Source: a bacterium
Lineage (GTDB): Bacteria; Patescibacteriota; Minisyncoccia; Phycocordibacterales; UBA9973
DNA: 64,000 nt
NCBI GenBank assembly: GCA_037200905.1
Contig: JBBCGN010000004.1
Location: 4,038 to 68,037 of the forward strand
Direction of reading: 5' to 3'
Shown: positions 7,486 to 55,508 of the stretch, in pieces
How positions within the stretch are numbered: position 1 is the stretch's first letter
Layout of the letters: each line of letters begins with the position of its first letter
The notes under the pieces: generated by a model
Database searches by the model: none
What the model saw: only the letters and a program-made list of their open reading frames with translations
Told to the model about the DNA's origin: nothing
Position numbers and translations under genes: made by a program

Positions 7486-8502
7486 ATGTCGAACTTATAT
7501 TCCAATTCCATTTTCTGGATCGATACCGATAAGATCAAGCCGAATCCCTATCAGCCGCGCCGCGATTTCGACGAGGCCCGCCTCGAAGACCTGGCCCTCT
7601 CTATCAAGCAGTACGGCGTGCTCCAGCCGCTGACCGTTTCCCGCGTAGAAGTCGAGAAGGACGACGGCATGGCGACGGAATACGAGCTCATCGCCGGCGA
7701 ACGCCGCCTGCGCGCCGCGAAGCTCGCCGGAGTGTCGCAGGTGCCGGCCATCATCCGTGTCGGCGACACGAACATGATGAAGCTCGAGCTCGCCATCATC
7801 GAGAACCTCCAGCGCGAAGACCTCAACGTCGTCGACCGCGCCCGGGCATTCTTCCAATTGGCGAACGAATTCAAATTCACCCACAGCGAGATCGCCAAGA
7901 AGATGGGCCGTTCGCGCGAATACGTCTCGAACACTCTCCGCATCCTGTCACTGCCCGAAGAGATCCTGCAAGGCCTCTCCGAAGGCAAGATCAGCGAAGG
8001 CCACACCCGGCCGATACTGATGCTCGCCGACCATCCGGAAGAGCAGCTCGTGCTTTTCAAGGAAATCGTCTACAAGAAGATCACTGTGCGCGAAGCGGAG
8101 CGTCTGGCGCGCAAGATCGCCTTCGACCGCGTGCGCAAGAAGGAATTCCTGCCCGACCCGGAGATCACCGAGCTCGAAGAAGAATTCCAGGACAAGCTCG
8201 GCACTCGCGTGCACATCGAGCGCAAGGAGAACGGCGGCCAGATCAAGATCGATTATTTCTCTACGGACGACCTGCGCGAGATATTGAACCAGATCAACAA
8301 ATCAAACATGGAGAAACGGGCTACCGACATGCTCGAGAAGCATATTGCGAGCACCGCCGCGTCCGAGGAGGCCGCGGCGACAGCTACGGACGACACGGAG
8401 GCGCCAGTCACCGAAGATGGAGCGCCGGTAGACGATCGCGGAGCCGAAGAGAAGAAAGAGGACGAATCGAACCTCTACGACATCTCGAATTTCAGCCTCT
8501 AG
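7486..8502 (+). CDS. parB: Chromosome partitioning protein ParB (338 aa)
   Basis: ParB box PYQPRRDFDEARLEDLALSIKQYGVLQPLTV and ELIAGERRLRAAKLAG. ATG lies 7 nt after TGcTAAAAT (7471-7479). Confidence 0.85.
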   Translation: MSNLYSNSIFWIDTDKIKPNPYQPRRDFDEARLEDLALSIKQYGVLQPLTVSRVEVEKDDGMATEYELIAGERRLRAAKLAGVSQVPAIIRVGDTNMMKLELAIIENLQREDLNVVDRARAFFQLANEFKFTHSEIAKKMGRSREYVSNTLRILSLPEEILQGLSEGKISEGHTRPILMLADHPEEQLVLFKEIVYKKITVREAERLARKIAFDRVRKKEFLPDPEITELEEEFQDKLGTRVHIERKENGGQIKIDYFSTDDLREILNQINKSNMEKRATDMLEKHIASTAASEEAAATATDDTEAPVTEDGAPVDDRGAEEKKEDESNLYDISNFSL

Positions 8503-18448: not shown

Positions 18449-18802
18449 CTAAGATTTTTTCTTTCCCATACGAGCATCCTCTTTCTGGAGCAGGGCATGC
18501 CGATTGGCTTGCAGTTCCCATAGGATGGCGAGCCGGGTGCGGACTTCACGATTGTACTCTCTTCCCAAGGAATCCCCGAGCGTGCTGGGCGGAAGGTGCC
18601 TAATCTTTTCGTTCAGATACGTGCATATGCCGACCAGGGAATCAATCTTGTGAGACAGCGAGTCCCATGCGGCGATGAAACGGAAGGTCTTTTGATCTTC
18701 CTCAGACCTTTTCGTGTCGTTAAGGTCAATCACGAAATACGCGTATACTGCAACTGCAAAAATTAAAATCATAAAACCGTGAATAGGATTTACTTTTTTC
18801 AT
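18449..18802 (-). CDS. Small N-terminally anchored protein (117 aa), unassigned
   Basis: ORF with one TM helix (GFMILIFAVAVYAYFVI). AT-rich. Confidence 0.4.
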   Translation of the reverse strand: MKKVNPIHGFMILIFAVAVYAYFVIDLNDTKRSEEDQKTFRFIAAWDSLSHKIDSLVGICTYLNEKIRHLPPSTLGDSLGREYNREVRTRLAILWELQANRHALLQKEDARMGKKKS

Positions 18803-18930
18803 CGTATATATTTTAGTGAAGAACTTGATTACTTATACAGTATATCACATTTTATAAATAAAGTCAATATGTGTCTCCGTACATAGATTTTACTCATATT
18901 TTGTGGTATAGTTTCAACGTTTTTTATTAT

Positions 18931-19004
18931 TGGGAGATCGTCTAACGGTAGGACAGAGGCCTTTGAAGCCTTTAATCTAGGTTCGATTCCTAGTCTCCCA
19001 GCCA
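18931..19004 (+). tRNA. tRNA-Gln (anticodon TTG), CCA encoded
   Basis: Acceptor TGGGAGA/TCTCCCA, D-arm GTCT..GGAC, anticodon arm GAGGC-CTTTGAA-GCCTT, T-arm CTAGG-TTCGATT-CCTAG. TGgTATAGT promoter at 18904-18912. Confidence 0.9.
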
Positions 19005-19095
19005 ACAAGAGCGTCGCTCGAGACGCGTCGGTGCAATATCTGAAGGTTTTGCATAGAGCGATATTTTCAGTAGAGCTGATATAATGAGGAAACAT

Positions 19096-20218
19096 ATGGA
19101 AAAGATGGGTGAAGGGAAAATATTGACTCCAGAAGCAAGAAATTATGCCAAGCTTGAAGACATCTTTGAGCACGATCTTGAAAACCTTATATTGTCAGAA
19201 TTAAATCCTGAAACTCCATCGGAAGAGCGCATTGATTTTCTTAAAAAAGAACTTGATATTACCTCAACACTACTAAGTAATCTCTCAATTCCGTGGAGAA
19301 TTGGCGGGTCATTTGCATTAGTGCTTAATACTGAAAAATTTGCAAGAGATCTTCACGATATCGATATAGAAATAAACTTAGACGATAGGAAGATTTTCTT
19401 GCAAGAATTGCAGAAATTGGGAGGAACTTTTAAGCACGATGATGGCAAGGGCGATATTCACGAGATAACTCCTGAAAATATAGACTCGATAAACCAAGGC
19501 AAGATTACCCATTCGGAATTGGGTATCGACGTAGAAGTTTCTATTTGTTGACTTCGACACTAACACTATTGAAAGCCCAGATGGGGCTAGTATTGAAGTT
19601 GATAAAAACGAATACCAAGAAGGTGTTGGTATATACCAAACCTTTTCTGGAAATAAGATTGAATTGAGACCCCTGGAAATAAGCTTGATAAACAAAGTTA
19701 TTGACCAGCGGCCAAAAGATCTTGTTGATATTAAAACTTACTTACCACTTTTATCAGAAGAGCAGCGAGGACGCTTTGACAGATACTACGAAAGATTTAA
19801 TCTTTTTCTCAGTACGCCATCAGGAAAGGCACTTTCCACAATTGAGGACCTTGTTAACTATTTACCCTCTCCTGAAGATATTCAAAAGATTACAAACAAG
19901 GAAGTATTATTGGCGGCGCAAGCTCTTGAAAAAAGAATTGACACTGTATTAAGTGAAATTATACAGGATGCAAAAATTGATGAAATACCAAAAAAGATAT
20001 TAAGTAGTAAAGTTTTTAAAATATTGGGACAGGAAATAAGCCATCTTATTATCAGTAGTTATCAAGACGGTATGCATAGCGTTGCAGATTTAAGGAATCT
20101 CATTTTGTCGTCTCTAAAAGAAGATCAGATAGATATTCTTTTATCAGATTGGACGAAAGATGCTTTGCACAATTCTCTTAATAATATTGAAATTTGGGAG
20201 GCAAGAAAAAATTCATGA
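19096..20218 (+). CDS. Nucleotidyltransferase-fold protein (ANT(2'')/AbiEii-like), one frameshift
   Basis: NTase motif WRIGGSFALVLNTEKFARDLHDIDIEI. Frames join near 19540 (GIDVEV|LFVDFDTN). Downstream motif RPKDLVDI. The track ATG at 19084 sits inside the -10 box (19080-19085), so I use ATG 19096. Confidence 0.55.
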
Positions 20219-20344
20219 TTAAGGCGAAATTAAAAATGCGCTCGAGTTGCGTCGTTGTATCATAGGAACATATTAGAAACAAACATTACAAGGCTTAATC
20301 GATTACGGTTCCAGCTCGAGAAGGTCAGCTCGGAAAATTGGAAA

Positions 20345-20378
20345 TAAAAAAACCGGTTACTTGTGACCGGTTTTTAAA
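20345..20378. terminator. Bidirectional terminator between convergent genes
   Basis: AAAAAAA-ACCGGT-tacttgtg-ACCGGT-TTTTT. Confidence 0.7.
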
Positions 20379-20392
20379 ATTCTTCTCAAGCT

Positions 20393-20764
20393 CTAATTAG
20401 TTTCTTCTTGTTTCTCAATCAAAGTAATATATTCTTTGACCTCAGTAGCAAACTCAGTAGGAAATACAGCATCAGCAATATCTGAAATCTCTGTTCTCAA
20501 CAGAGTATATATTATTGATGGGTATCCTACGAGACTGTTTCTAATTTGCTGATTAGTATATCCATTAATTCCTCTCTCAAGATCATAAAGTGCAAGATTT
20601 GCACAAAGAACAAATCCTTCGGGGACAAGCTCGTTGTTTAAATAAGTACTGAGAAATGCGGCAAAGCTGTATACCAGCTCATTGCGTGTTTCTGGTAAGA
20701 ATTCTTTTAGATTGAGCAATTTAGTCTTTGGTTCTGCCATAGATAAAACTTTTTCGGAGTTCAT
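20393..20764 (-). CDS. Unassigned protein (about 123 aa)
   Basis: ORF track 20393-20836. TGaTATTAT lies inside the 5' part, so MNSEKVLSMAEPK (ATG 20764) is the likelier start. No family recognised. Confidence 0.4.
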   Translation of the reverse strand: MNSEKVLSMAEPKTKLLNLKEFLPETRNELVYSFAAFLSTYLNNELVPEGFVLCANLALYDLERGINGYTNQQIRNSLVGYPSIIYTLLRTEISDIADAVFPTEFATEVKEYITLIEKQEETN

Positions 20765-20870
20765 GTTGTATATATTTAATTTGGTTTTGAATAACATTAC
20801 CGAACACATAATATCACTATTTTGGTCTTTTATCAATGTTTATTTAGCCCTTATTTCCCATCAATAAAGT

Positions 20871-20956
20871 TCCAACCCTCACAGAGGACTGCATTTTCAA
20901 CAGGCCCGTGGCGCCTAAGAAAACGGGAGCGTCGTACCACAATCCCAGCTCGTAAA
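20871..20956 (+). repeat. Direct repeat copy A (86 nt), ends in the AATCCCAGCTCGTAAA core
   Basis: Aligns to 21307-21390 with 10 mismatches and one 2-nt indel. Confidence 0.9.
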
Positions 20957-21261
20957 ATAAAAAGCCCGGATATAAAAATCCAGGCTTCAATAAAAAACTA
21001 CCTTGCTTTAGGGTTACGAGAGTCGTCAGCTTTTTTCACTTTAGGTGATTATTACTAGAATCTCGCAGATTCGCCACGCGTTTTTTCTTGTGACTACTTA
21101 GGATATTTCTCAGTTATCTATCATGAGTTTAAAGCGGCATAGCCACAACAGAAACTTAATAGAAGTCCTTACAACCCTGGTCAAATAAGCACCAGTTTAC
21201 CCTTTTCCCCTTTACTATAGTTAGGGGAATCGCGATTGCTTTCTTGCAAAGTGCACTGCCT
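20955..21261 (-). ncRNA. Candidate noncoding RNA (about 307 nt), class unknown
   Basis: Minus-strand TTGACA (21296-21291), 17 nt, TAGTAT (21273-21268). Terminator hairpin AAGCCTGGA/TCCGGGCTT (20987-20962) followed by a U-tract. Longest ORF inside is under 15 codons. Confidence 0.45.
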
Positions 21262-21306
21262 GAGGTAATACTAAAAAATTAGAACAGTTTTGTCAATGAC
21301 TAAGGG

Positions 21307-21390
21307 TCCAACCCTCACAGAGGACTGCGTTTTCAACAAGCCTGCAGCCTAAGGAAATGGGAGCATCGTTCCACAATCCCAGCTGGTAAA
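21307..21390 (+). repeat. Direct repeat copy B (84 nt), ends in AATCCCAGCTGGTAAA
   Basis: About 86 percent identical to copy A. Lies just upstream of the candidate ncRNA -35 on one side and the next gene's TGcTATAAT on the other. Confidence 0.9.
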
Positions 21391-21408
21391 GTTTGCTATA
21401 ATGCTTCA

Positions 21409-21959
21409 ATGTTTGATGCACGGATATTCCCAGATAGTCTAGATAATGCAAAGAAATTCTTGAAGGACAAGGAGCTGCCTTTAAAGGTGAATACGAAATT
21501 CATGATTATATATTTTCTTCTACAGATTCAGAACAAACCTTAGATAAAGTATTTTTACGCCTACGTATGATTCCTGTGAATATTTGGAATGAGAAGAAAG
21601 TAATCGTTACAATAAAAAATACTAAACTTCAGAAAATAGGCAAGAAATCCATTATTCCTGTTAAAGAACAATTTAATACTGAAGCAGAGGCACGAGCGTT
21701 TATAGAAAAAAATTATTCTGATGCCTTCAAACCGGATTTCCATTTTGACAGAAAAGGCTGGCAATATGATTTACCTAATGGTGATCAGGTTGACCTCGAA
21801 GATATTGAGGCGCATTTCTCTATTGAGTTTAAATCTGAGACAGAAGAAGGATTGCAGAACTTGCTGGATCTATTTCAGACCTCTTCGAAGGAAGTTATCA
21901 GAGGACCTTCTGTAGTTGCGGTTAGGGACTTGCTCAAAAAGTGGAGTTGGATTAAGTAA
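21409..21959 (+). CDS. CYTH-like (class IV adenylate cyclase / triphosphatase fold) protein, one frameshift
   Basis: Joined read MFDARIFPDSLDNAKKFLKDKGAAFKGEYEIHDYIF...LRLR...VIVTIK...FHFDRKGWQYDLPNGDQVDLEDIEAHFSIEFKSE follows the CYTH strand pattern. Slip near 21470. The N-terminal ExExK motif is not conserved. Confidence 0.4.
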
Positions 21960-21963
21960 AAAT

Positions 21964-21990
21964 GTTCCAACGTCAATCCCAGCTCGTGAA
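21964..21990 (+). repeat. Collapsed repeat copy C (5' GTTCCAAC fused to 3' AATCCCAGCTCGTGAA)
   Basis: GTTCCAACGTCAATCCCAGCTCGTGAA retains both ends of the 86-nt unit without its middle. Confidence 0.7.
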
Positions 21991-22043
21991 TTTAGCCTCA
22001 TTTGATATAATCAATTCTATTATAGGTCTAAATAAATAACTTT

Positions 22044-22424
22044 ATGAAAAATCAAATAGAAAAATATGTCGATGGGTATGTACTGGTGGTTCCAAAGAAT
22101 AAAATTTCAGCTTACAAGAAAATGGCGCAGATGGGCGCCAAGATGTGGAAAAAACACGGAGCGCTTGATTATAAAGAATGCATGATTGATGATGCTACGC
22201 CGAAGCATTCAACTTTTCCATTTCCAAAAATGGTAAAACTGAAAAAGGGGGAGACAGTCTGGTTCTCTTTCATCACATATAAATCAAGAAAGCATCGTGA
22301 TGAGGTAAACAAGAAAGTCATGAGCGATCCCGCAATGAATGATCCCAAATGGAAAGACATGCCTATGCCTTTCGACATGAAACGTTTCGCGTACGGTGGA
22401 TTTGAAGTTGTTGTCTCAATATAG
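22044..22424 (+). CDS. DUF1428-family protein (126 aa)
   Basis: YVDGYVLVVPKNKISAYKKMA...MWKKHGALDYKEC...FAYGGFEVVV matches my memory of DUF1428 (YbaA-like). Confidence 0.6.
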   Translation: MKNQIEKYVDGYVLVVPKNKISAYKKMAQMGAKMWKKHGALDYKECMIDDATPKHSTFPFPKMVKLKKGETVWFSFITYKSRKHRDEVNKKVMSDPAMNDPKWKDMPMPFDMKRFAYGGFEVVVSI

Positions 22425-22440
22425 GTCCCAGCTTCGTACC
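22424..22440 (+). repeat. Core copy D (GGTCCCAGCTTCGTACC)
   Basis: Overlaps the last base of the DUF1428 stop codon (22422-22424). Has one extra T relative to the core. Confidence 0.6.
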
Positions 22441-22473
22441 AGGCATCCGGCAAATTCTGATATACTTCAAGTC

Positions 22474-22950
22474 ATGAAAAAGCGGTTATTCTTTTCATGT
22501 ATTTTCATCGTCTATATCGCCATCCTCATCAAGGTCATGGTGTTCAAGTACGTGCCGGCCGTCCATATAGGACAACTGCTGCTTGATTTTGGAGGGACGA
22601 ACGCAGGCTATCCGGCAAACTTTGTGCCGTTCAAGACCATCGTGCCGTATCTGCTCGGCTATGAGGGATGGATCATTGCGGGCACCAATCTCGTCGGAAA
22701 TATCGCTTTGCTCGTGCCGATAGGATTTCTCGCACCTTTCATCTATCGGAACATGGTATGGAAAAAATCTCTTGCACTCGGCGTCGCTTCCGGTCTTTTT
22801 ATCGAGACGATGCAGGCGATATTGCACGTGGGCATTTTCGACATTGACGACGTGATACTGAACGCACTCGGCGTCATGATCGGCTATTGGGCGTTTGTAT
22901 TTCTCGCAAAAGGGAAACGCTGGCAGTCGGCCTTGAGAGTCAATGAATAG
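22474..22950 (+). CDS. VanZ-like membrane protein (158 aa)
   Basis: NFVPFKTI, GNIALLVPIGFLAPF, IFDIDDVILNALGVMIGYW. ATG lies 8 nt after TGaTATACT (22458-22466). Confidence 0.7.
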   Translation: MKKRLFFSCIFIVYIAILIKVMVFKYVPAVHIGQLLLDFGGTNAGYPANFVPFKTIVPYLLGYEGWIIAGTNLVGNIALLVPIGFLAPFIYRNMVWKKSLALGVASGLFIETMQAILHVGIFDIDDVILNALGVMIGYWAFVFLAKGKRWQSALRVNE

Positions 22951-22969
22951 GAGATACAATTTTTAAAAT

Positions 22970-23002
22970 AAAAACACTAGGACGCATTTGTCCTAGTGTT
23001 GA
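22970..23002. terminator. Hairpin terminator between convergent genes
   Basis: ACACTAGGAC-gcattt-GTCCTAGTGT with an A-run upstream. Confidence 0.55.
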
Positions 23003-23020
23003 TAATTTCTGGGAGAGCAT

Positions 23021-23997
23021 TCAGCTCAACGGATCTCCGTCATACTGTTTTTCTTTTACCCTTTGTTTCAAAGGAAAAGATTGCTCGATAGCTTCACCGA
23101 TGCTAAAGAGCGTGAGCCTGGCATTAGCATCTTCCTCCTCGTGCAACTCGGAATGCCTGACGATTTCCGCTACGGGCAATTTCTGCTTGCGGATGAAATC
23201 GAGATGTTCTTGTTCGTGTGGTTCGTGTCGGATATTGTTCACGACGTAGCCTGCCGCACGGGCATCGAATTTCTCGATAATCTTACGGACTTCGAAGGAT
23301 TGGCTTACCGGGCTGCGCTCCGGAGTGGTGACAAGGATGTACCTCGCTCTTTGAGCAGGTCGACTACGTTGCGGATGCGATGGGTGTAATATTCAATCGT
23401 CTGCACATAGTCGCTTTCGAGATACTGATGGATATCCGGCCATCCGATGCGTACTGCCTGCTTGATGGCCCAGCTTTTGTTCTTGAGATTGTTCAGGCTC
23501 CGAATCATAGAATCGGAGAAAGAAAGCAGTCTCTCAAAGCCTGCGGTTGGTTCGACGTCGAGCACCGCATGTTCATAGCCCTTACTGTTGGCATCAAACA
23601 GTATCTCTACCAGGAGAATGAACTTCTGAACCGTCTCAATGTCAGTCGGCACGCCGAAGAATTCGTTTATCATTTCAGTGAAAGAAATGATGCCGCGATC
23701 TGCAGGGAACTGGCTGATGTAGTCGTCAAAATAATTTTTGACCTTCACGTCCTTGAAATAGCCAATACCCTTAAACTCAAAGCATTCGATAACGGCAAGC
23801 ATAAGCCTGTCGTTGACCTGATGCAACGTGTTTTTCGTAAAAAATTTCTCCCTCATACCCAGAGCCTGTCTGGTGCTGTGCCCTCCATCATAATCGGCGA
23901 TGACGGTGCGCGCGGTTTGGGAACATTTGAGCGCGTACGCTACTGCAGAAGTGGTCTTACCAACTCCTCCTTTGCCAGCGAAGATTGTTAATTGCAT
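23021..23997 (-). CDS. ArsA/Get3-family P-loop ATPase, one frameshift
   Basis: Deviant Walker A IFAGKGGVGKTT, switch II LDVEPTAGFERLL, and RYILVTTPE recovered after a slip near 23335. TTGACA-17-TAATTT promoter at about 24032-24060 (minus). Confidence 0.65.
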
Positions 23998-24302
23998 AGA
24001 ACAAAAGTTTTCCTTTAAATTACATCTTAATCAATTGTCTGTCAAGGAGTACCATCCCGGCTTCAGGCCAAAAAATCGGGCAAAGAAAAACAGCTCCATT
24101 CGTGGAGCTGTTCGATGTAAAGGCATCTTGAGCATCTATAGGGCGAACCTTTTCGATATCCAGCCCGTAAAATCTGCTATACTACCGCTCAAGTCCGGCG
24201 ATGGGGAAATGCATTTCAAGAAATAGCAGGTGTACTCTCAGGGGGCAGAATAAAAAAACCATTTCCTTGGGAATGGTTTTGATGTTTTTTCGCTTTCGGA
24301 CC

Positions 24303-24563
24303 TTACCTTACGCAGCAGATGATTGTCAGTATGACGCTGATGGTCAAGAATATGAAGAACATCCTTGCTCTGCCGCTTGCTTCTTCAGCACGTTCTTTCT
24401 TGTAGCGCTTCACGCCTTTTTTGCTGACAAGACCAGCTGTCTTTACATTTCCGTCCCTGTAATCATAGACGTCTTTGTAATAACTCGGTCTTGGCTCAAC
24501 GTATGAGGGCATAGCAAGCATGGCGATGGCGATGATCCAGCAAATAACAGTAATAACTATCAT
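24303..24563 (-). CDS. Small two-TM protein (86 aa), unassigned
   Basis: TM helices at both ends. Followed by hairpin AACCATTCC/GGAAATGGTT plus a U-tract (24258-24290). Confidence 0.4.
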   Translation of the reverse strand: MIVITVICWIIAIAMLAMPSYVEPRPSYYKDVYDYRDGNVKTAGLVSKKGVKRYKKERAEEASGRARMFFIFLTISVILTIICCVR

Positions 24564-28109: not shown

Positions 28110-28514
28110 ATGAAACATATAACGGCAAAAATAGCGGGGCTGATGGTGCTCGCGGCGATCATCATCTTGGCTCCGAAAGCTCACGCGGCGGATGTGATAG
28201 TCAATAAGTATACATATCCGACCAATACGACTCCGCCGAATCCTTCGACCGCAGGAGGCGATGTCACTGTGAATCACTACGGTCCCACTACCGCTCCGCC
28301 CCCTCAGTCCGCGGGAGGCGGCACCGTCGTCGTACAATACGGTCCGATCACTCCGACAGCTCCCCAGTCTACAGGCAGTACGACTATAACTCAGTATGGT
28401 TCAAGTACAGGCTCAATTCCTCAGTCGACCGCTACTACCAACATAAATCAGTATGGCTCGACCCCCGCTCCAGTTCCTCAGTCAACCGGCAGCACAGCGG
28501 TCAACTACTACTAA
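28110..28514 (+). CDS. Secreted repeat protein (134 aa)
   Basis: Signal peptide ending KAHA-AD, then about six imperfect repeats of roughly 20 aa ending QYG(P/S)...PQS(T/A)G. Confidence 0.55.
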   Translation: MKHITAKIAGLMVLAAIIILAPKAHAADVIVNKYTYPTNTTPPNPSTAGGDVTVNHYGPTTAPPPQSAGGGTVVVQYGPITPTAPQSTGSTTITQYGSSTGSIPQSTATTNINQYGSTPAPVPQSTGSTAVNYY

Positions 28515-28643
28515 TACAGTCTCAATGCTCATAAAAAATGGCTGCCCGATGGCAGCCATTTAGGAAGTCCTATCCACAGAACTGGGTTACTCCGCGCCTC
28601 TTTTCCGATATAATGAAAACCGTATTCCCAATATATCTTTTTT

Positions 28644-30925
28644 ATGAGACTACGAAAAATTTTCCTATTCCTTCTGCTCATTGCCATCCTTGCCGTTCCT
28701 TCGGCGCGGCATGCATCGGCAAGCACGCTGGCCGGCTACTGGAAATTTGACGAAGGTTCCGGCACCGCCGCCACTGACAGCAGCAGCCAAGGCAATGACG
28801 GCACGCTCGTGGGCGGAGGCGTGAGCTATAGCAATGAGGAAACCGCACCGACGTCTGCGGACAATCCGTACAGTTTGCAGTTCAACGGCGCAAGCGGCAC
28901 AGGGGTGCATGTGCCCGATGATTCGTCTCTTGATATGACGACGGCCGCGACCGTGCTCGCCTGGGTGTACTGGGACGGCACCGGCGGCGACAACGTCGTG
29001 GTGGACAAGAGCAACACCGCCGGCGGCGATACTCCGAATTACCGCTTGATAGTCAAAGGCAACGGCAAGCTGGCGATATGGAACGGCTTCAGCGCTTCAG
29101 AGAGCAGCACTGCCATCACTGCGAATACATGGACGCTCGTGAATTTCACTATCAATAACAGCGGCGTGCAGTTCTATATCAATGGCGTGCCGTCCGGCAC
29201 CGGCGGCACCGGACTCGGCGCAGTTACGAACTATGACCTCCTGATAGGCCGCGACGCCATCGGCAGGTATTTCCACGGCTATATCGACGAGGTGCAGATA
29301 TACAACGGACAGCTCTCCGAGGAAGAAATCGGCGACCTTGCTGATGGCGGGGCTCCGCCTCCGCCTGCCCTCGGTACGGCTGGCGACGCTGACGGCATGG
29401 TAGCGCACTGGGCATTCGACGAGACGACGCTGGGAGCTACTGTGGCCGACAGTACCGGCCACGACTATGACGGTACGCCGCTCGCACCGACGGGCCGCAG
29501 CCGTCGACCGATACGCCGACCGATGCGGGCCACAGCCTGTATTTCGACGGCGTCGACGACTATGTCGATATTCCAGACGGATTGGACGATTTCACGGACG
29601 GCATCACCATCACGTTCTGGGCCAAGCCAACCGCGGTGCAGGCATGGTCGCGCGTGTTCGACTTCGGCAACGGCTTTTCCACTGATAACATATTGCTCGC
29701 CCAGGATGGCACTTCCGGGCATGTCACTTTCTTCACGTATTACGATACCAGCGGCGCCGTTTCAGTAACCGACGAATCGGGCTTCGCGCTCAACGAGTGG
29801 CATTACTACACTCTGACGGCTGATACGGAAGGCACTTTGAAAATCTACAGAGACGGCGTGCTCGATGCCGAGGAACCGGAGAGCGGGCACACGCTCGACG
29901 ATATCGTCCGTACGAACAACTTTTTGGGCAAGAGCGACTTGGACGGCGATCCCTTTTACAAGGGATATCTCGACGACATGCGCATCTATAATCGCGCGCT
30001 CGGCGCGAGCGAAGTGACGAACCTGTCGGCAGGGAGGGAGGTGGATGATGGCGGCGCTACTGTTCCCGATGCGCCGGTGCTCAGTTCGGCTACTGCTGAG
30101 GATGAGGACGTGGTGCTCGAATACACGCAACCGTCCGACGGCGGTTCGGATATCACGGGATTCCAGATAGAATACAGTGTGCATGGCGAAGACGATTGGA
30201 CGAGATTGTCGGAGCTGGCAACGGGCACGACCGCCACTGTCAAAGATCTGGACAACGGCACCAACTATGATTTCCGCGTGCGTGCCGTCAACGACATCGG
30301 AGAGAGCGACCCGTCGAACGTATTGACCGCTATGCCGGTGGCGCTCCAGCTCTCTGACCTTATCAGCTGGGGCTCCCTCAGTACGGACAATATTACGGAG
30401 ACAGGAGCGACGCTCGTCGGGCATATCGACATGAGCGCGCTGCTTGATCATTTCGACATAACTGACGAAGCCGATGTCTCGGAATTCTATGAGAGCCTGA
30501 TTTCTTATAACGGCGTGGAATTATTCCTGGGCTTCGTCTTGAGCGATAATGAGACTATCGAACTCATGGAAGACATGCCTGTCCTCGCCGATGCTTTCGA
30601 AGCCCCGAACGACTTCAGCGCCACGCTCGACGGCACCCTCACGTGCGGCACGACGTACGCGTTCGCGCCGGTCTTCGCTACCATAGGCCTGGGCTTCGCT
30701 TTCGATCCGGAAGTGAAGACGTCTTTCACCACCAGTGCATGCGGCGGCGAAGACTCTCCTGCGCCGGCATCGCATGCGCGTAAGTCCGGCCATAGCGGAA
30801 GAAACATATTTGGCCTTATCAATCCGCAACCGGGCAATCCAGAGCTTCCGCCCGTCTTCATAGCGCCGGAACAGCGCGCTCCGCAAGGAGACACCGCCCT
30901 GCCTGTCCGGGATCTCTCCATCGGC
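28644..30925 (+). CDS. Large surface protein: signal peptide, two LamG/concanavalin-like domains, FN3 domain; one frameshift, 3' end uncertain
   Basis: LAGYWKFDEGSGT...YIDEVQIYNGQLSEEEI and SLYFDGVDDYVDIP...YLDDMRIYNRALGASEV (LamG). FN3: PDAPVL...ITGFQIEY...YDFRVRAVNDIGESDPS. Slip near 29490. No in-frame stop before the obg ATG. Confidence 0.65.
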
Positions 30926-31928
30926 ATGAGCGGAGACGATGTGAAGGCATTACAGCTGCTGCTCGTGGCGACGGCGTGGTGCGCTGGCGCCAGGAGAAAT
31001 TCATCCCGAAGGCGGGCCGGCCGGCGGCGATGCCGGCCGCGGCGGAGACTTCTTCGTGCAGGCGGTGCGCGACGTGCACATCCTTTCCAAATACAAGGCT
31101 AAGAAAGATTTCAAAGCCGAGCGCGGCGAAGACGGCGGCAAGAAGAAATTGCATGGCGCCAACGGCGCGGATTTCGTGCTCGAGCTGCCCATCGGCTCCA
31201 TCATCACAAACCTCGCTACCGACGAGAAATACCAGCTCCTCGAAGAAGGCCAGAAGATCATGCTCCTTCGCGGCGGCTACGGCGGCTACGGCAACGAGCA
31301 TTTCAAGAGTTCTATCAATACTACCCCGATGGAGGCGAACGAAGGAGCCGAAGGCGAAAAAGGAGATTTTCATATCGAGCTCGAGCTCTTTGCCGATATG
31401 GGCCTGATCGGCCTGCCGAACGCGGGAAAGTCTTCGCTCTTGAACTCGCTGACCAATGCCTCGGCGAAAGTCGGGGATTATGCCTTTACCACCCTCGATC
31501 CGAATCTCGGCGATTTTTACGGCTACATCATCGCGGACATTCCCGGCATCATCGAGGGCGCCAATGAGGGCAAAGGCCTCGGCGTGAAATTCTTGCGCCA
31601 CATAAAGCGCACCAAGGAGCTCGCGCATCTCGTGTCGTTCGAGAATCTCTCGCTCGGCTCGACCGGCATGATAAAAGTCTACAAGGAGATACGCAAAGAG
31701 CTCGCGAGCTACGACAAGAATCTGGGTCTCGGCGACGAAGGCCTGGCCAGCAAGGAAGAGATCATCATCCTGACCAAGGCCGATACGGTGCCGGATCCGA
31801 AGATCGTGGCCCGCGAAGAAGCGAAATTCAAGAAGCTCGGCAAGAAAGTCTTTACCCTGTCGCTCTATGACGACAAGTCCGTAAAATATCTCTCCGACAG
31901 CCTCATCAAGATCCTCAAAAAGAAATAA
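30926..31928 (+). CDS. obg: GTPase Obg, two frameshifts in the N-terminal domain
   Basis: [50 protein letters not shown] spans three frames (slips near 30975 and 31015). G domain follows: GLIGLPNAGKSSLLN, DIPGIIEGA, TKAD. Confidence 0.8.
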
Positions 31929-50598: not shown

Positions 50599-50997
50599 AT
50601 GACTAATACCGAAGTAGCACAAGCCATTTATTTGGCGACAAAGGACAAAAAGGGAGCAGAGCTCGAGAGCGCGCTCGAGAGCGCTACCAAGTTTCTGTCC
50701 CGCAAGCGACTACTCTCCAAAACTTCTGAAATATTGAACACTTTGGAGGAAATCGTAAATAAAGCTGAAGGCAGGATAGCAGTAAATTTGAAAAGCGCCC
50801 AGAAACTGAAAGAGGAGACGAAGAAAGAAATAGCACAGATGCTGAAGAAGCATTACGACGCCAAAGAGTTTGCTTTTGTCGAGACGATCGAACCGAAAGT
50901 CCTTGGCGGCGTGCGCATCGAAGTAGGGAACGACGTCATCGACCTGTCGGTGAAGAACAAGATCGGCCAATTAAAAAATTATTTACAAAGAGTCTAA
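50599..50997 (+). CDS. atpH: F-type ATP synthase subunit delta (short, 132 aa)
   Basis: Position between b and alpha. C-terminal [24 protein letters not shown] pattern. Confidence 0.7.
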
Positions 50998-51007
50998 TTA
51001 TAAACAT

Positions 51008-52509
51008 ATGAGCACGAACAATATCGTAGAAAATTTAAGAAAGGAGATAGAGAATTTCAAGCTGGAAACCCAAGTCGAGAAAGTGGGCAAAGTGCTCGAA
51101 GTTTTCGACGGTATTGCGAAAGTGTCAGGGCTCTCTGACATCAAATCATCCGAGATGGTCACATTCGCGGGAGGCGAGACGGGCGTGGCCCTCAACCTCG
51201 AAGAAGACGCGGTAGGTGTCATCATCCTGGGCGATTTCTCTCATATCAAGGAAGGCGACGAGGTGAAAGCGATCGGCAGAATCCTCGAGATTCCTGTTTC
51301 CGACGCCATCGTCGGCCGCGTGGTAAATGCGAACGGCATAGCCATCGACGGAAAGGGCACTATCAAGGCCGACAAGACCTACCCGATCGAGAAAGTGGCT
51401 CCGGGCGTCATCACCCGCCAATCCGTCGATCAGCCGGTCTACACCGGCATCAAGGCTATCGACGCCATCATCCCGGTCGGCCGCGGCCAGCGCGAGCTCA
51501 TCATCGGCGACCGCCAAACTGGTAAGACCGCTATCGCCATCGACGCCATTTTGAACCAGAAAGGCCAGAACATGATCTGCGTCTACGTATCTATCGGTCA
51601 AAAAGATTCAAAGCTCCGCAAAATCCAGACCCGTCTCGAAGAAGGCGGCGCTATGGAGTACACCGTCATCGTCTCCGCCGGCGCATCGGAAGCGGCAGCG
51701 CTCTCATATATCGCTCCGTACACTGGGGTCTCCATTGCTGAATATTTCATGGATCAGGGCAAAGATGTTTTGATAATCTACGATGATCTTTCCAAGCACG
51801 CCGTGGCATACCGAGAAATCTCGCTCTTGCTCCGCCGTCCGCCGGGCCGCGAGGCATTCCCGGGAGATGTCTTCTACTTGCATTCTCGCTTGCTCGAGCG
51901 CGCATGCCGTCGAAACAAAGAATACGGTGGTGGTTCTATCACAGCATTTCCAATTATCGAAACTCAGGCAGGTGACATCTCTGCATATATTCCGACGAAC
52001 GTCATCTCTATTACCGACGGACAGATTTCTTGGAGACTGATCTTTTCTATAAAGGCATCCGTCCGGCTGTGAACGTGGGCTCATCCGTGTCTCGCGTGGG
52101 CTCTTCCGCGCAGATCAAGGCCATGAAGAAAGTGGCAGGAACTTTGAAGCTCGACCTCGCTCAATTCCGCGAGCTCGAAGCCTTCTCGCAGTTCGGTTCC
52201 GATCTCGACGAAGCTACCAAGCGCCAGCTCGAACGCGGCAAGCGCTCCGTAGAGCTCTTAAAACAGCTCCAATACGCTCCGGTAAAAGCAGAGCACCAGA
52301 TCGTCACTATGTACGCTCTCGTAAAAGGCTTTATGGATGATGTTGCTATTGAACGCATCAAAGAATTCGAAAGCGGTTGGGTAGAATACAGTGAAAGAAA
52401 TGCTAAGACTTTCTACAAAGAAGTGGCTGAATCGAAAATGTGGACAGAAAAAGGGGAAGCTGAGCTTGTGAAAGCACTTAATGATTTCAAAGCATCATTT
52501 GCAAAATAA
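51008..52509 (+). CDS. atpA: F-type ATP synthase subunit alpha, one frameshift
   Basis: Walker A GDRQTGKT, then ITDGQI|[25 protein letters not shown] across a slip near 52035. Confidence 0.9.

Positions 52510-54142: not shown

Positions 54143-55508
<1,366 letters not shown>

Follow-up and report, generated by a model that had tools for sequence, protein, structure and literature searches.

A putative tRNA-anchored cassette array in a Parcubacteria genome, with a boundary element that resembles the tRNA 3' end

Integrons and clusters of attC sites lacking integron-integrases (CALINs) hold mostly single-gene cassettes of unrelated accessory function, each followed by a conserved repeat, with all repeats in one orientation. 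In the pdif modules of Acinetobacter plasmids, small gene modules lie between short sites that are served by the host XerC/XerD. Bacteria of the candidate phyla radiation (CPR, Patescibacteria) have tiny genomes with few recognised mobile elements, yet they show strain-level gene turnover of unclear mechanism. The tycheposon islands of Prochlorococcus are tandem integrations separated by partial tRNAs (bioRxiv 10.1101/2020.12.28.424599). Here we describe an array of small gene units in a 64-kb stretch of bacterial DNA (contig JBBCGN010000004.1, positions 4,038 to 68,037; hereafter the window, from whose first letter positions are counted). The array begins at 19005, directly 3' of a tRNA-Gln gene, and its units are separated by a boundary element of about 30-45 nucleotides (nt). 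An earlier sequence-only reading of the window had reported an AT-rich block behind this tRNA, which ARAGORN, Rfam and the GC profile bear out, and had proposed serial integration or cassette capture. The array belongs, in somewhat degenerate form, to a family of tRNA-anchored arrays that is widespread and apparently undescribed. We think it probable that a recombinase encoded elsewhere built it up by inserting circular single-gene cassettes, one after another and site-specifically, at the 3' end of the tRNA.

The consensus of the element opens with an A-rich stretch and reads TTAAAAAG-GTTCCAAC-ATCGTCCCAGAC-nnCCAGC-AAGTAAAAT, where GTTCCAAC is the 5' box and the CCAGC core belongs to the 3' box; the consensus of its hidden Markov model (HMM) reads TTAAAAAG GTTCCAAC ATCGTCCCAGAC GGCCAGC AAGTAAAATAA. 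On two contigs with relatives of the window's DUF1428 gene (L089 and L092), that gene stands in a row of small unrelated genes adjoining tRNA-Gln, and most intergenic gaps open directly after the stop codon with about 33 nt of the form GGTTCCAAC-TTCGYACCAGAC-RGYCAGC. Read against this consensus, the six window copies (A to F) resolve into a complete element (E), a short one (D), two long forms (B and C), a gapped one (A) and a 3' half (F). A metagenome scan with a 20-nt degenerate pattern of the element returned at least 120 loci; the array counts given here are among the matches listed, 101 of which were confirmed by HMM, with locus GC from 0.28 to 0.64. The element is thereby placed in more than 100 contigs, and to date all of these are Parcubacteria-like (CPR); L147, L194 and L212 come from Hainich groundwater metagenomes. 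The viral contigs of IMG/VR yielded no true element: the matches there to a 19-mer core and to the 20-mer pattern all lie inside phage protein-coding genes, those of the 20-mer mostly in one high-GC family, and were rejected as unrelated. A blastn search with the whole block found no match in phage and plasmid collections.

The arrays share one anatomy. In each of the 38 multi-copy loci, all copies share one strand (109 in total; chance about 4e-22). Copies are spaced at a median of 611 nt (interquartile range 461-956 nt), and one open reading frame (ORF) typically takes up about three quarters of a segment. The element begins within 30 nt past a same-strand stop codon in 80 of 177 cases (45%). 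The main ORF of the cassette has the same sense as the element in 51 of 71 cassettes and lies on the opposite strand in 18, while the orientation of the element is kept; cassettes 2 and 3 of the window are likewise reversed. The orientation of the element thus follows the array and the tRNA and not the neighboring gene, which argues against a terminator, a promoter or an operator.

In the class of reversed cassettes, a conserved stretch often lies just upstream of the element, T[AG]GACAGAAC.TA.CAT..TTGCA or AGTTTTGTCAATGAC. It is seen about 30 nt upstream of the elements in L212, L194, L197 and L214, at 21280-21297 in the window and at 4825-4852 in L150. On the opposite strand this stretch reads like a promoter (TTGACA) of the reversed gene, and the conserved site may be longer in this class.

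The arrays are also linked to tRNA genes. Loci chosen by the element alone have 34 tRNA-Gln and 5 tRNA-Ser genes, and 1-2 each of five other tRNA types. The elements lie on the tRNA strand, downstream of the tRNA 3' end, in 64 of 65 cases at tRNA-Gln loci and in 4 of 5 at tRNA-Ser loci. The adjacency of dnaX and tRNA-Gln seen in the window is kept in 8 relatives, and no element was found upstream of the tRNA in this conserved neighborhood. The last 16 nt of the element (GTCCCAGACTGCCAGC) match the last 16 nt of tRNA-Gln (GTCCAAGTCTCCCAGC) at 13 positions without a gap, a score reached by only 11-30 of 5000 shuffles. Moreover, the 3' box changes with the anchor. In Ser-anchored arrays it is CTCTCCGC, which matches the end of tRNA-Ser; 50 Gln-anchored elements have CAGY and none has CCG, and the reverse holds for Ser-anchored ones (0 CAGY, 4 CCG). 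In L203 and L220 the tRNA and the elements alike end in ...CCCCCAGT, and in L148 the tRNA ends in ...GGCAAC and the element in ...GCCAAC. Aligned by eye, a Ser-type element in L163 agrees with the tRNA-Ser end in 20 of its 22 nt, apart from a 5-nt insert in the T-loop part; the tRNA-Ser in this locus lies about 9 kb downstream of the element and is therefore not its anchor. There is no copy of the tRNA end of 10 nt or more in the window. Given this absence, the likeness and its co-variation with tRNA identity suggest that the element is a mimic and not a copy: it appears to imitate the last ~22 nt of its anchor tRNA, a stretch that runs from the T-loop as far as the discriminator base, and to carry some 5 additional nt within the T-loop part.

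Three further sequences concern the tRNA ends. In L161, about 15 nt past an odd tRNA-Gln on the minus strand (1834-1907), there is a true 24-nt partial copy of the canonical tRNA-Gln 3' end (GGTTCGATCCCTAGTCTCCCAGCC). In L144, upstream of 916-1257, a hybrid GGTTCGAGTCC-CAGACTGCCA resembles a tRNA T-loop fused to the 3' part of an element. Both sequences look like products of recombination between tRNA and element. In L092, a tRNA-Gln(CUG) with a perfect 17-nt flanking inverted repeat (2194-2578) lies inside an apparent second, split tRNA (TGCCAGATCG...//...TCTGGCAGCCA); it may be an intron-containing tRNA, a kind reported for Patescibacteria (PMC13011429).

Whole cassettes differ in presence or absence between genomes, and the end points of these differences lie in elements. 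The DUF1428 block of the window (22035-22428) is homologous to 5992-6385 of L092, and its VanZ block (22458-22910) to 7599-8050. One element separates the two genes in the window; in L092 they are separated by two more cassettes, each of which has an element of its own. A 3-dmu-9_3-mt-like gene forms the first cassette past the tRNA in L243 and an internal one in L092, and the arrays of L015 and L231 both open with a hydrolase-like gene. The junction of CAGC with TCGTAAGTTTGGTATAAT is found 3' of the tRNA itself in L233 and L253, and 3' of elements in L166, L254 and window copies B and D, as expected if a cassette starting with TCGTAA... can sit behind either a tRNA or an element. An element that L226 has in full is cut in L230, whose contig starts precisely at its CCAGC, and 24 elements lie within 160 nt of a locus end against 12 expected. 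This excess suggests that the sequence ahead of a given cassette varies among populations.

In the window, the parts of the array are as follows.
18931-19004, plus strand: tRNA-Gln(UUG), called by ARAGORN and Rfam, 3' end ...GGTTCGATTCCTAGTCTCCCAGCCA; proposed array anchor and primary attachment site
19005-20306, plus strand: cassette 1; promoter TGATATAAT at 19077-19085; nucleotidyltransferase-like gene at 19084-19551 and 19664-20218, split by a frameshift
20307-20338, plus strand: element A, degenerate short form, gapped, GGTTCCAGC TCGAGAAG GTCAGC TCGGAAAAT; from the sequence and a MAFFT alignment with the other copies
20342-20861, minus strand: cassette 2, reversed; orphan 123-aa gene at 20393-20764 (minus) with its own minus-strand promoter and a bidirectional terminator at 20348-20375; from a promoter and terminator scan
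20862-20958, plus strand: element B (c1), long form; 5' box GTTCCAAC at 20869-20876, 54-nt insert at 20877-20930, 3' half GTCGTACCACAATCCCAGC TCGTAAAAT at 20931-20958
20959-21297, minus strand: cassette 3, reversed, without an ORF; promoter -35 TTGACA at 21296-21291 (minus), terminator at 20988-20961 (minus)
21298-21392, plus strand: element C (c2), long form; 5' box GGTCCAAC at 21305-21312, 3' half CATCGTTCCACAATCCCAGCTGGTAAAGT at 21364-21392; from the repeat pair and the external HMM
21393-21959, plus strand: cassette 4; promoter TGCTATAAT at 21394-21402; gene of unknown family at 21411-21548 and 21567-21959 (split)
21957-21990, plus strand: element D, short form with a shortened middle, TAA AAAT GTTCCAAC GTCAAT CCCAGC TCGTGAA; external HMM
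21991-22424, plus strand: cassette 5; promoter TGATATAAT at 22003-22011; DUF1428 gene at 22044-22424
22419-22456, plus strand: element E, complete short form, ATATAG GTCCCAGC TTCGTACCAGGC ATCCGGC AAATT; overlaps the DUF1428 stop codon
22457-24151, mixed strands: cassette 6; promoter TGATATACT at 22458-22466; VanZ at 22474-22950 (plus); ArsA/ParA-like ATPase at 23021-23997 (minus, split); Pfam
24152-24173, plus strand: element F, partial, 3' half only, TTCGATATCCAGC CCGTAAAAT, followed by TGCTATACT at 24175-24183

An HMM made from 173 element copies in other genomes, with the window left out, was run over the whole window on both strands, and its five best matches are all in the block and all on the plus strand. 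The best of them is element E (E = 2e-5). No copy of the element was found in the other ~60 kb of the window, outside 20.3-24.2 kb. Element B is matched in two separate halves, and its split form was recovered by a pattern search; its 3' half is nearly identical to a short element at L231:2206. Copies A and F have no match to this HMM. Element A is a probable member of the family, and element F, which agrees with the 3' part of the consensus at 12 of 15 positions, is a probable remnant. In the long forms B and C, a 54-nt insert after GTTCCAAC separates the 5' box from the 3' half. They form a real repeat of ~95 nt (20860-20956 against 21296-21390, 85% identical with a 2-nt indel), which has no third copy in the window. 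An exact 21-mer of the insert (CCAACCCTCACAGAGGACTGC) has 0 matches in IMG/VR and JGI metagenomes, and the insert appears to be specific to the source genome.

The six copy strings quoted in the sequence-only reading are all where it placed them, and extended -10 boxes are present (19077-19085, 21394-21402, 22003-22011, 22458-22466 and 24175-24183). Its 7-mer core TCCCAGC shared with the tRNA is also real, but it was understated, as it is the 3' box of the ~30-45-nt site; in copy E, however, the TCCCAGC is the GTTCCAAC-like 5' box and not the 3' core. The claim that copies C and D start within 5 nt of a stop codon holds for D as a full element (stop 21957-21959, GTTCCAAC at 21964) but not for C; element E, which overlaps the TAG at 22422-22424, is also within 5 nt of a stop. 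TCCCAGC occurs on the plus strand at 18996, 20943, 21377, 21977, 22426 and 63112 and on the minus strand twice in 64 kb, so that 5 of the 8 occurrences on both strands of the window fall on the plus strand within 3.4 kb (18996-22432). Likewise, TCCCAGCT occurs five times on the plus strand (four of them at 20943-22433) and never on the minus strand. Chance recurrence of a short oligomer in AT-rich DNA might be argued from the window, where only a 7-mer is common to the tRNA and two of the six copies are weak, but it is refuted by this one-sided clustering, by the independent external HMM that recovers the copies, and by more than 100 other loci with the same anatomy.

GC in the block is 0.35-0.38 at 19-22 kb against about 0.55 around it and climbs back stepwise afterwards; per kb from 19 kb it is 0.37, 0.35, 0.38, 0.43, 0.48, 0.45 and 0.52, and thus higher further from the tRNA. 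This gradient fits an order in which the newest cassettes are nearest the tRNA and older ones further out.

Other readings of the element itself were tried and rejected. A coding repeat was considered from a frame in B that ends in ...PTLTEDCIFNRPVAPKKTGASYHNPSS and a stop, the same reading in C with a frameshift, and NPSS and a stop in D. B and C do not differ preferentially at third codon positions, there is no other copy of a peptide with the NPSS ending in the window, and the repeat was treated as non-coding. A structured RNA is not indicated: in Rfam searches over 18800-24400 only tRNAs reach the gathering score and nothing else is credible at E <= 10, and elements B and C fold no better than shuffles on either strand (z -0.1 to 0.4). 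Sigma-54, extracytoplasmic function (ECF) sigma and LexA-type readings of the motif misfit by eye in spacing and symmetry.

The cassettes of the window carry genes of several kinds. The gene of cassette 1 has a weak Pfam match (PF10706), and its frameshift may be an assembly error. The orphan gene of cassette 2 (20393-20764) has no homolog but itself among 5.8 billion proteins, and therefore gives no context to compare. In cassette 3, promoter and terminator bound a predicted transcript of ~300 nt, and the minus strand (20957-21265) folds at -85 kcal/mol (z = -3.2 against shuffles); with no Rfam match and no homolog among the fetched loci, the unit may encode a non-coding RNA of ~300 nt, or it may be a small gene that is badly damaged. 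The gene of cassette 4, previously called CYTH-like, has no Pfam match, and that name thus lacks Pfam support. The DUF1428 gene of cassette 5 (PF07237, E = 1e-35) is 80-86% identical to proteins of other Parcubacteria. The segment 22457-24151, with VanZ and the ArsA/ParA-like ATPase, is possibly two cassettes. Terminator-like sites at 20348-20375, 20961-20988, 22973-23000 and 24255-24280 adjoin elements, and none is inside one.

Two other sequences touch the ends of the array. A GC-rich 30-nt direct repeat (CGCTCGAG..GCGTCG..), 19015-19044 against 20239-20268 and 73% identical, flanks the nucleotidyltransferase gene of cassette 1, and its first copy forms a small hairpin directly 3' of the tRNA. 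At the far end, the TGCTATACT box 3' of element F is followed about 70 nt on by the terminator-like hairpin at 24255-24280 with no ORF between (24175-24290, plus strand), and may belong to a small RNA of ~90 nt.

Some caveats apply to the source and assembly of the window. Its DnaX is 72-73% identical to that of Ca. Nomurabacteria/Paceibacterota metagenome-assembled genomes (MAGs), which makes the source organism a Parcubacteria (CPR) bacterium related to Ca. Nomurabacteria. The sequence of an NCBI contig, JBBCBH010014826.1, is identical to that of the window and ends at 30966; it belongs to GCA_037975565.1, a MAG labelled "bacterium". Because this contig stops there, the rest of the window is taken as another piece: the window seems to join two separate pieces at 30966/30967, and synteny across that point should not be read. 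For the same reason we dropped the idea that 19-31.9 kb is a single insertion relative to L016. A 506-aa ORF (29582-31102) and a truncated obg-like gene (31056-31928) straddle or abut this point. Downstream of the array, at 28110-31102, there is a cluster of secreted proteins with a low-complexity repeat protein and at least one Laminin_G_3 (concanavalin-like) protein, probably cell-surface proteins and separate from the array finding. The core genes atpA, atpD and topA are split by frameshifts, each into two overlapping ORFs (ATP synthase alpha and beta at 50975-52509 and 54143-55494; topoisomerase I at 10-11.9 kb). This suggests frequent indel errors in the assembly, and apparent pseudogenes anywhere in the window are suspect; since this affects core genes as well, the split genes of the block may likewise stem from the assembly and not from decay.

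The likeliest account of these arrays, in our judgment, is the insertion of cassettes by a recombinase acting in trans. From what is observed, namely the conserved sites, their polarity to the tRNA and their co-variation with its identity, and the array anatomy with cassettes present in one genome and absent from another, we infer a recombination reaction with a circular intermediate, an exact crossover point and a particular enzyme. A site-specific recombinase, probably of the tyrosine type and with its gene at another place in the genome, would insert circular cassettes with one site each in succession at the tRNA 3' end. It would exchange strands in or beside the shared CCAGC (or CTCCGC) core. 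Each insertion would shift the earlier cassettes further downstream, in the manner of attI x attC recombination in integrons, and recombination between two sites could delete or reshuffle cassettes. The proposal of serial integration or cassette capture in the sequence-only reading is strongly supported by the same-strand arrays directly past tRNA-Gln in dozens of independent contigs, the switch of the 3' box at tRNA-Ser and the break points of the cassettes. Between its two forms, cassette capture with a trans-acting recombinase fits better than tandem islets that each bore an integrase.

Several observations weigh against this account. No Phage_integrase or other recombinase family was found among the window ORFs tested, in agreement with the earlier report of no integrase there, and none is among the recurrent neighbors of the ~100 arrays, which are DnaX, Dus, SerRS, DprA, a 304-aa protein and cassette genes (RibD_C, His_Phos_1, HAD, Exo_endo_phos, MliC, YibE_F and DUF1428). 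A phmmer search with XerD and Hin sequences found none in the array loci, though in the control loci it found almost none either (one weak Hin, E 0.003). The site lacks the dyad symmetry that typifies the core sites of tyrosine recombinases, and it forms no attC-like hairpin (fold z ~0). Among the fetched loci there is no circular junction and no pair of otherwise identical contigs that differ by one cassette, only end overlaps. In L009 the tRNA is inverted relative to its element, and window copies A and F are weak.

Among the alternatives, the one that survives best, though we regard it as improbable, dispenses with a recombinase. The elements and the tRNA end would be short homology anchors, and natural transformation with homologous or microhomology-mediated recombination would swap, add and remove the genes between them. 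The absence of a recombinase linked to the arrays is as this model would have it; DprA, a transformation protein, is encoded in the conserved neighborhood upstream of the tRNA, and cassette indels that end in elements are predicted here too. However, RecA-dependent exchange usually requires homology at least as extensive as these ~30 nt at 75-90% identity, or more, and the model leaves unexplained the strict polarity from the tRNA 3' end, the conservation of the non-tRNA parts of the site across a GC of 0.28-0.64, and the contigs that branch exactly at the CCAGC core.

It is also improbable that the arrays are what classical island accretion left behind, in which integrase-carrying islands or prophages integrated repeatedly in tRNA-Gln and decayed to single genes between att scars. 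The location at a tRNA 3' end, the tRNA-like direct repeats and the foreign, AT-rich composition would all suit such islands, and tandem integrations separated by partial tRNAs are documented for tycheposons. Yet the repeats are a conserved family, with the same GTTCCAAC box and 5-nt insert in more than 100 contigs, and not decayed copies of the local tRNA. The units have the size of single genes (median 611 nt), neither whole nor fragmentary integrase genes recur in or next to about 100 arrays, and viral contigs in IMG/VR carry no true element.

A conserved expression signal is less credible still: a terminator, insulator, operator or tRNA-like RNA-processing signal between independently transcribed accessory genes. 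The 45% of elements that start within 30 nt of a same-strand stop codon would suit it, as would several copies with a TGnTATAAT box at a fixed distance (TATAAT from element position 40, by eye) and three boxes at a period of ~10-11 nt, like direct-repeat binding sites. But the orientation tracks the tRNA even where the flanking gene is reversed (18 of 71 cassettes, with 38 of 38 arrays uniform), the remaining ~60 kb of the window contain no element, and the 3' box switches with the identity of the anchor tRNA. Neither a hairpin nor a U-tract is present, folding equals that of shuffles, and there is no Rfam match.

In the literature on integrons, attC sites, cassettes, islands and tRNA-linked hypervariable regions in Patescibacteria/CPR we found no description of such arrays, with incomplete coverage that makes a prior description possible, and the element sequence was not found in the literature searched. 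If trans-acting cassette insertion is correct, it would be a concrete and testable mechanism for gene turnover in CPR bacteria, and a main source of accessory-gene turnover in their reduced genomes. The results supply a sequence model for the arrays, a predicted crossover (the CCAGC or CTCCGC core) and a search image for the recombinase. A site as short and simple as this may also have practical uses in site-specific insertion at tRNA genes.

Compared with known repeats, the element shares with repetitive extragenic palindromic sequences and bacterial interspersed mosaic elements (REP/BIME), enterobacterial repetitive intergenic consensus (ERIC) sequences, Correia and BOX elements the features of short conserved intergenic repeats past stop codons, with full-length and altered forms, some of them with promoters. 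In contrast to those families, which are spread genome-wide in both orientations with no tie to tRNA genes, there is here a single polar array per locus. The element is not of the miniature inverted-repeat transposable element (MITE) or REP type: no terminal inverted repeats were seen on inspection of B and C, its orientation is uniform, and within the 64-kb window it is confined to the block. Nor is it an intrinsic terminator, as it has no GC-rich hairpin with a U-tract.

The pdif modules are likewise small modules with short conserved sites and a recombinase encoded elsewhere. Their sites, however, are 28-nt, dyad-symmetric, alternating and on plasmids, whereas the sites here are non-palindromic, direct, chromosomal and anchored to a tRNA. 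Tycheposons share with these arrays the integration at a tRNA 3' end, the inward shift of older material, partial tRNA-like repeats between units, and streamlined host genomes without other obvious mobile elements (bioRxiv 10.1101/2020.12.28.424599). They differ in being several kb long and in encoding a tyrosine or large serine recombinase of their own, in many cases also a replication module, and their att sites are true partial tRNAs; the units here are single genes of ~0.6 kb median without a recombinase, and their repeat family only mimics the tRNA end.

The closest likeness is to integrons and CALINs. Besides the single-gene cassettes and one-way repeats described above, both have one fixed primary site at the end of the array, content that varies between relatives, and some cassettes that are reversed or non-coding. 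The cassette sizes here are within the typical range for integron cassettes. In contrast to integrons, there is no intI beside the primary site, and that site is a tRNA 3' end and not attI. The repeat has no RYYYAAC...GTTRRRY inverted cores or hairpin, it is a double-strand-type site of ~30 nt, and most cassettes have their own promoter. The 5' box TTCCAAC is similar to RYYYAAC, but it is not followed by a complementary GTTGGAA. With no adjacent intI and no attC, the locus is not an integron, although it would work like one, and its repeats, which do not appear to be attC sites, would set it apart from CALINs as well; the array feature of integrons, single-ORF cassettes with uniform repeats, is present. 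We are evenly divided on whether these arrays are a new class of cassette system in CPR bacteria, independent of integrons, in which a tRNA 3' end (that of tRNA-Gln, or sometimes of tRNA-Ser) stands in for attI and a non-palindromic ~30-nt mimic for attC. If they are, they would be a second, independently evolved answer to the integron problem, with a site that mimics a tRNA end in place of a folded attC.

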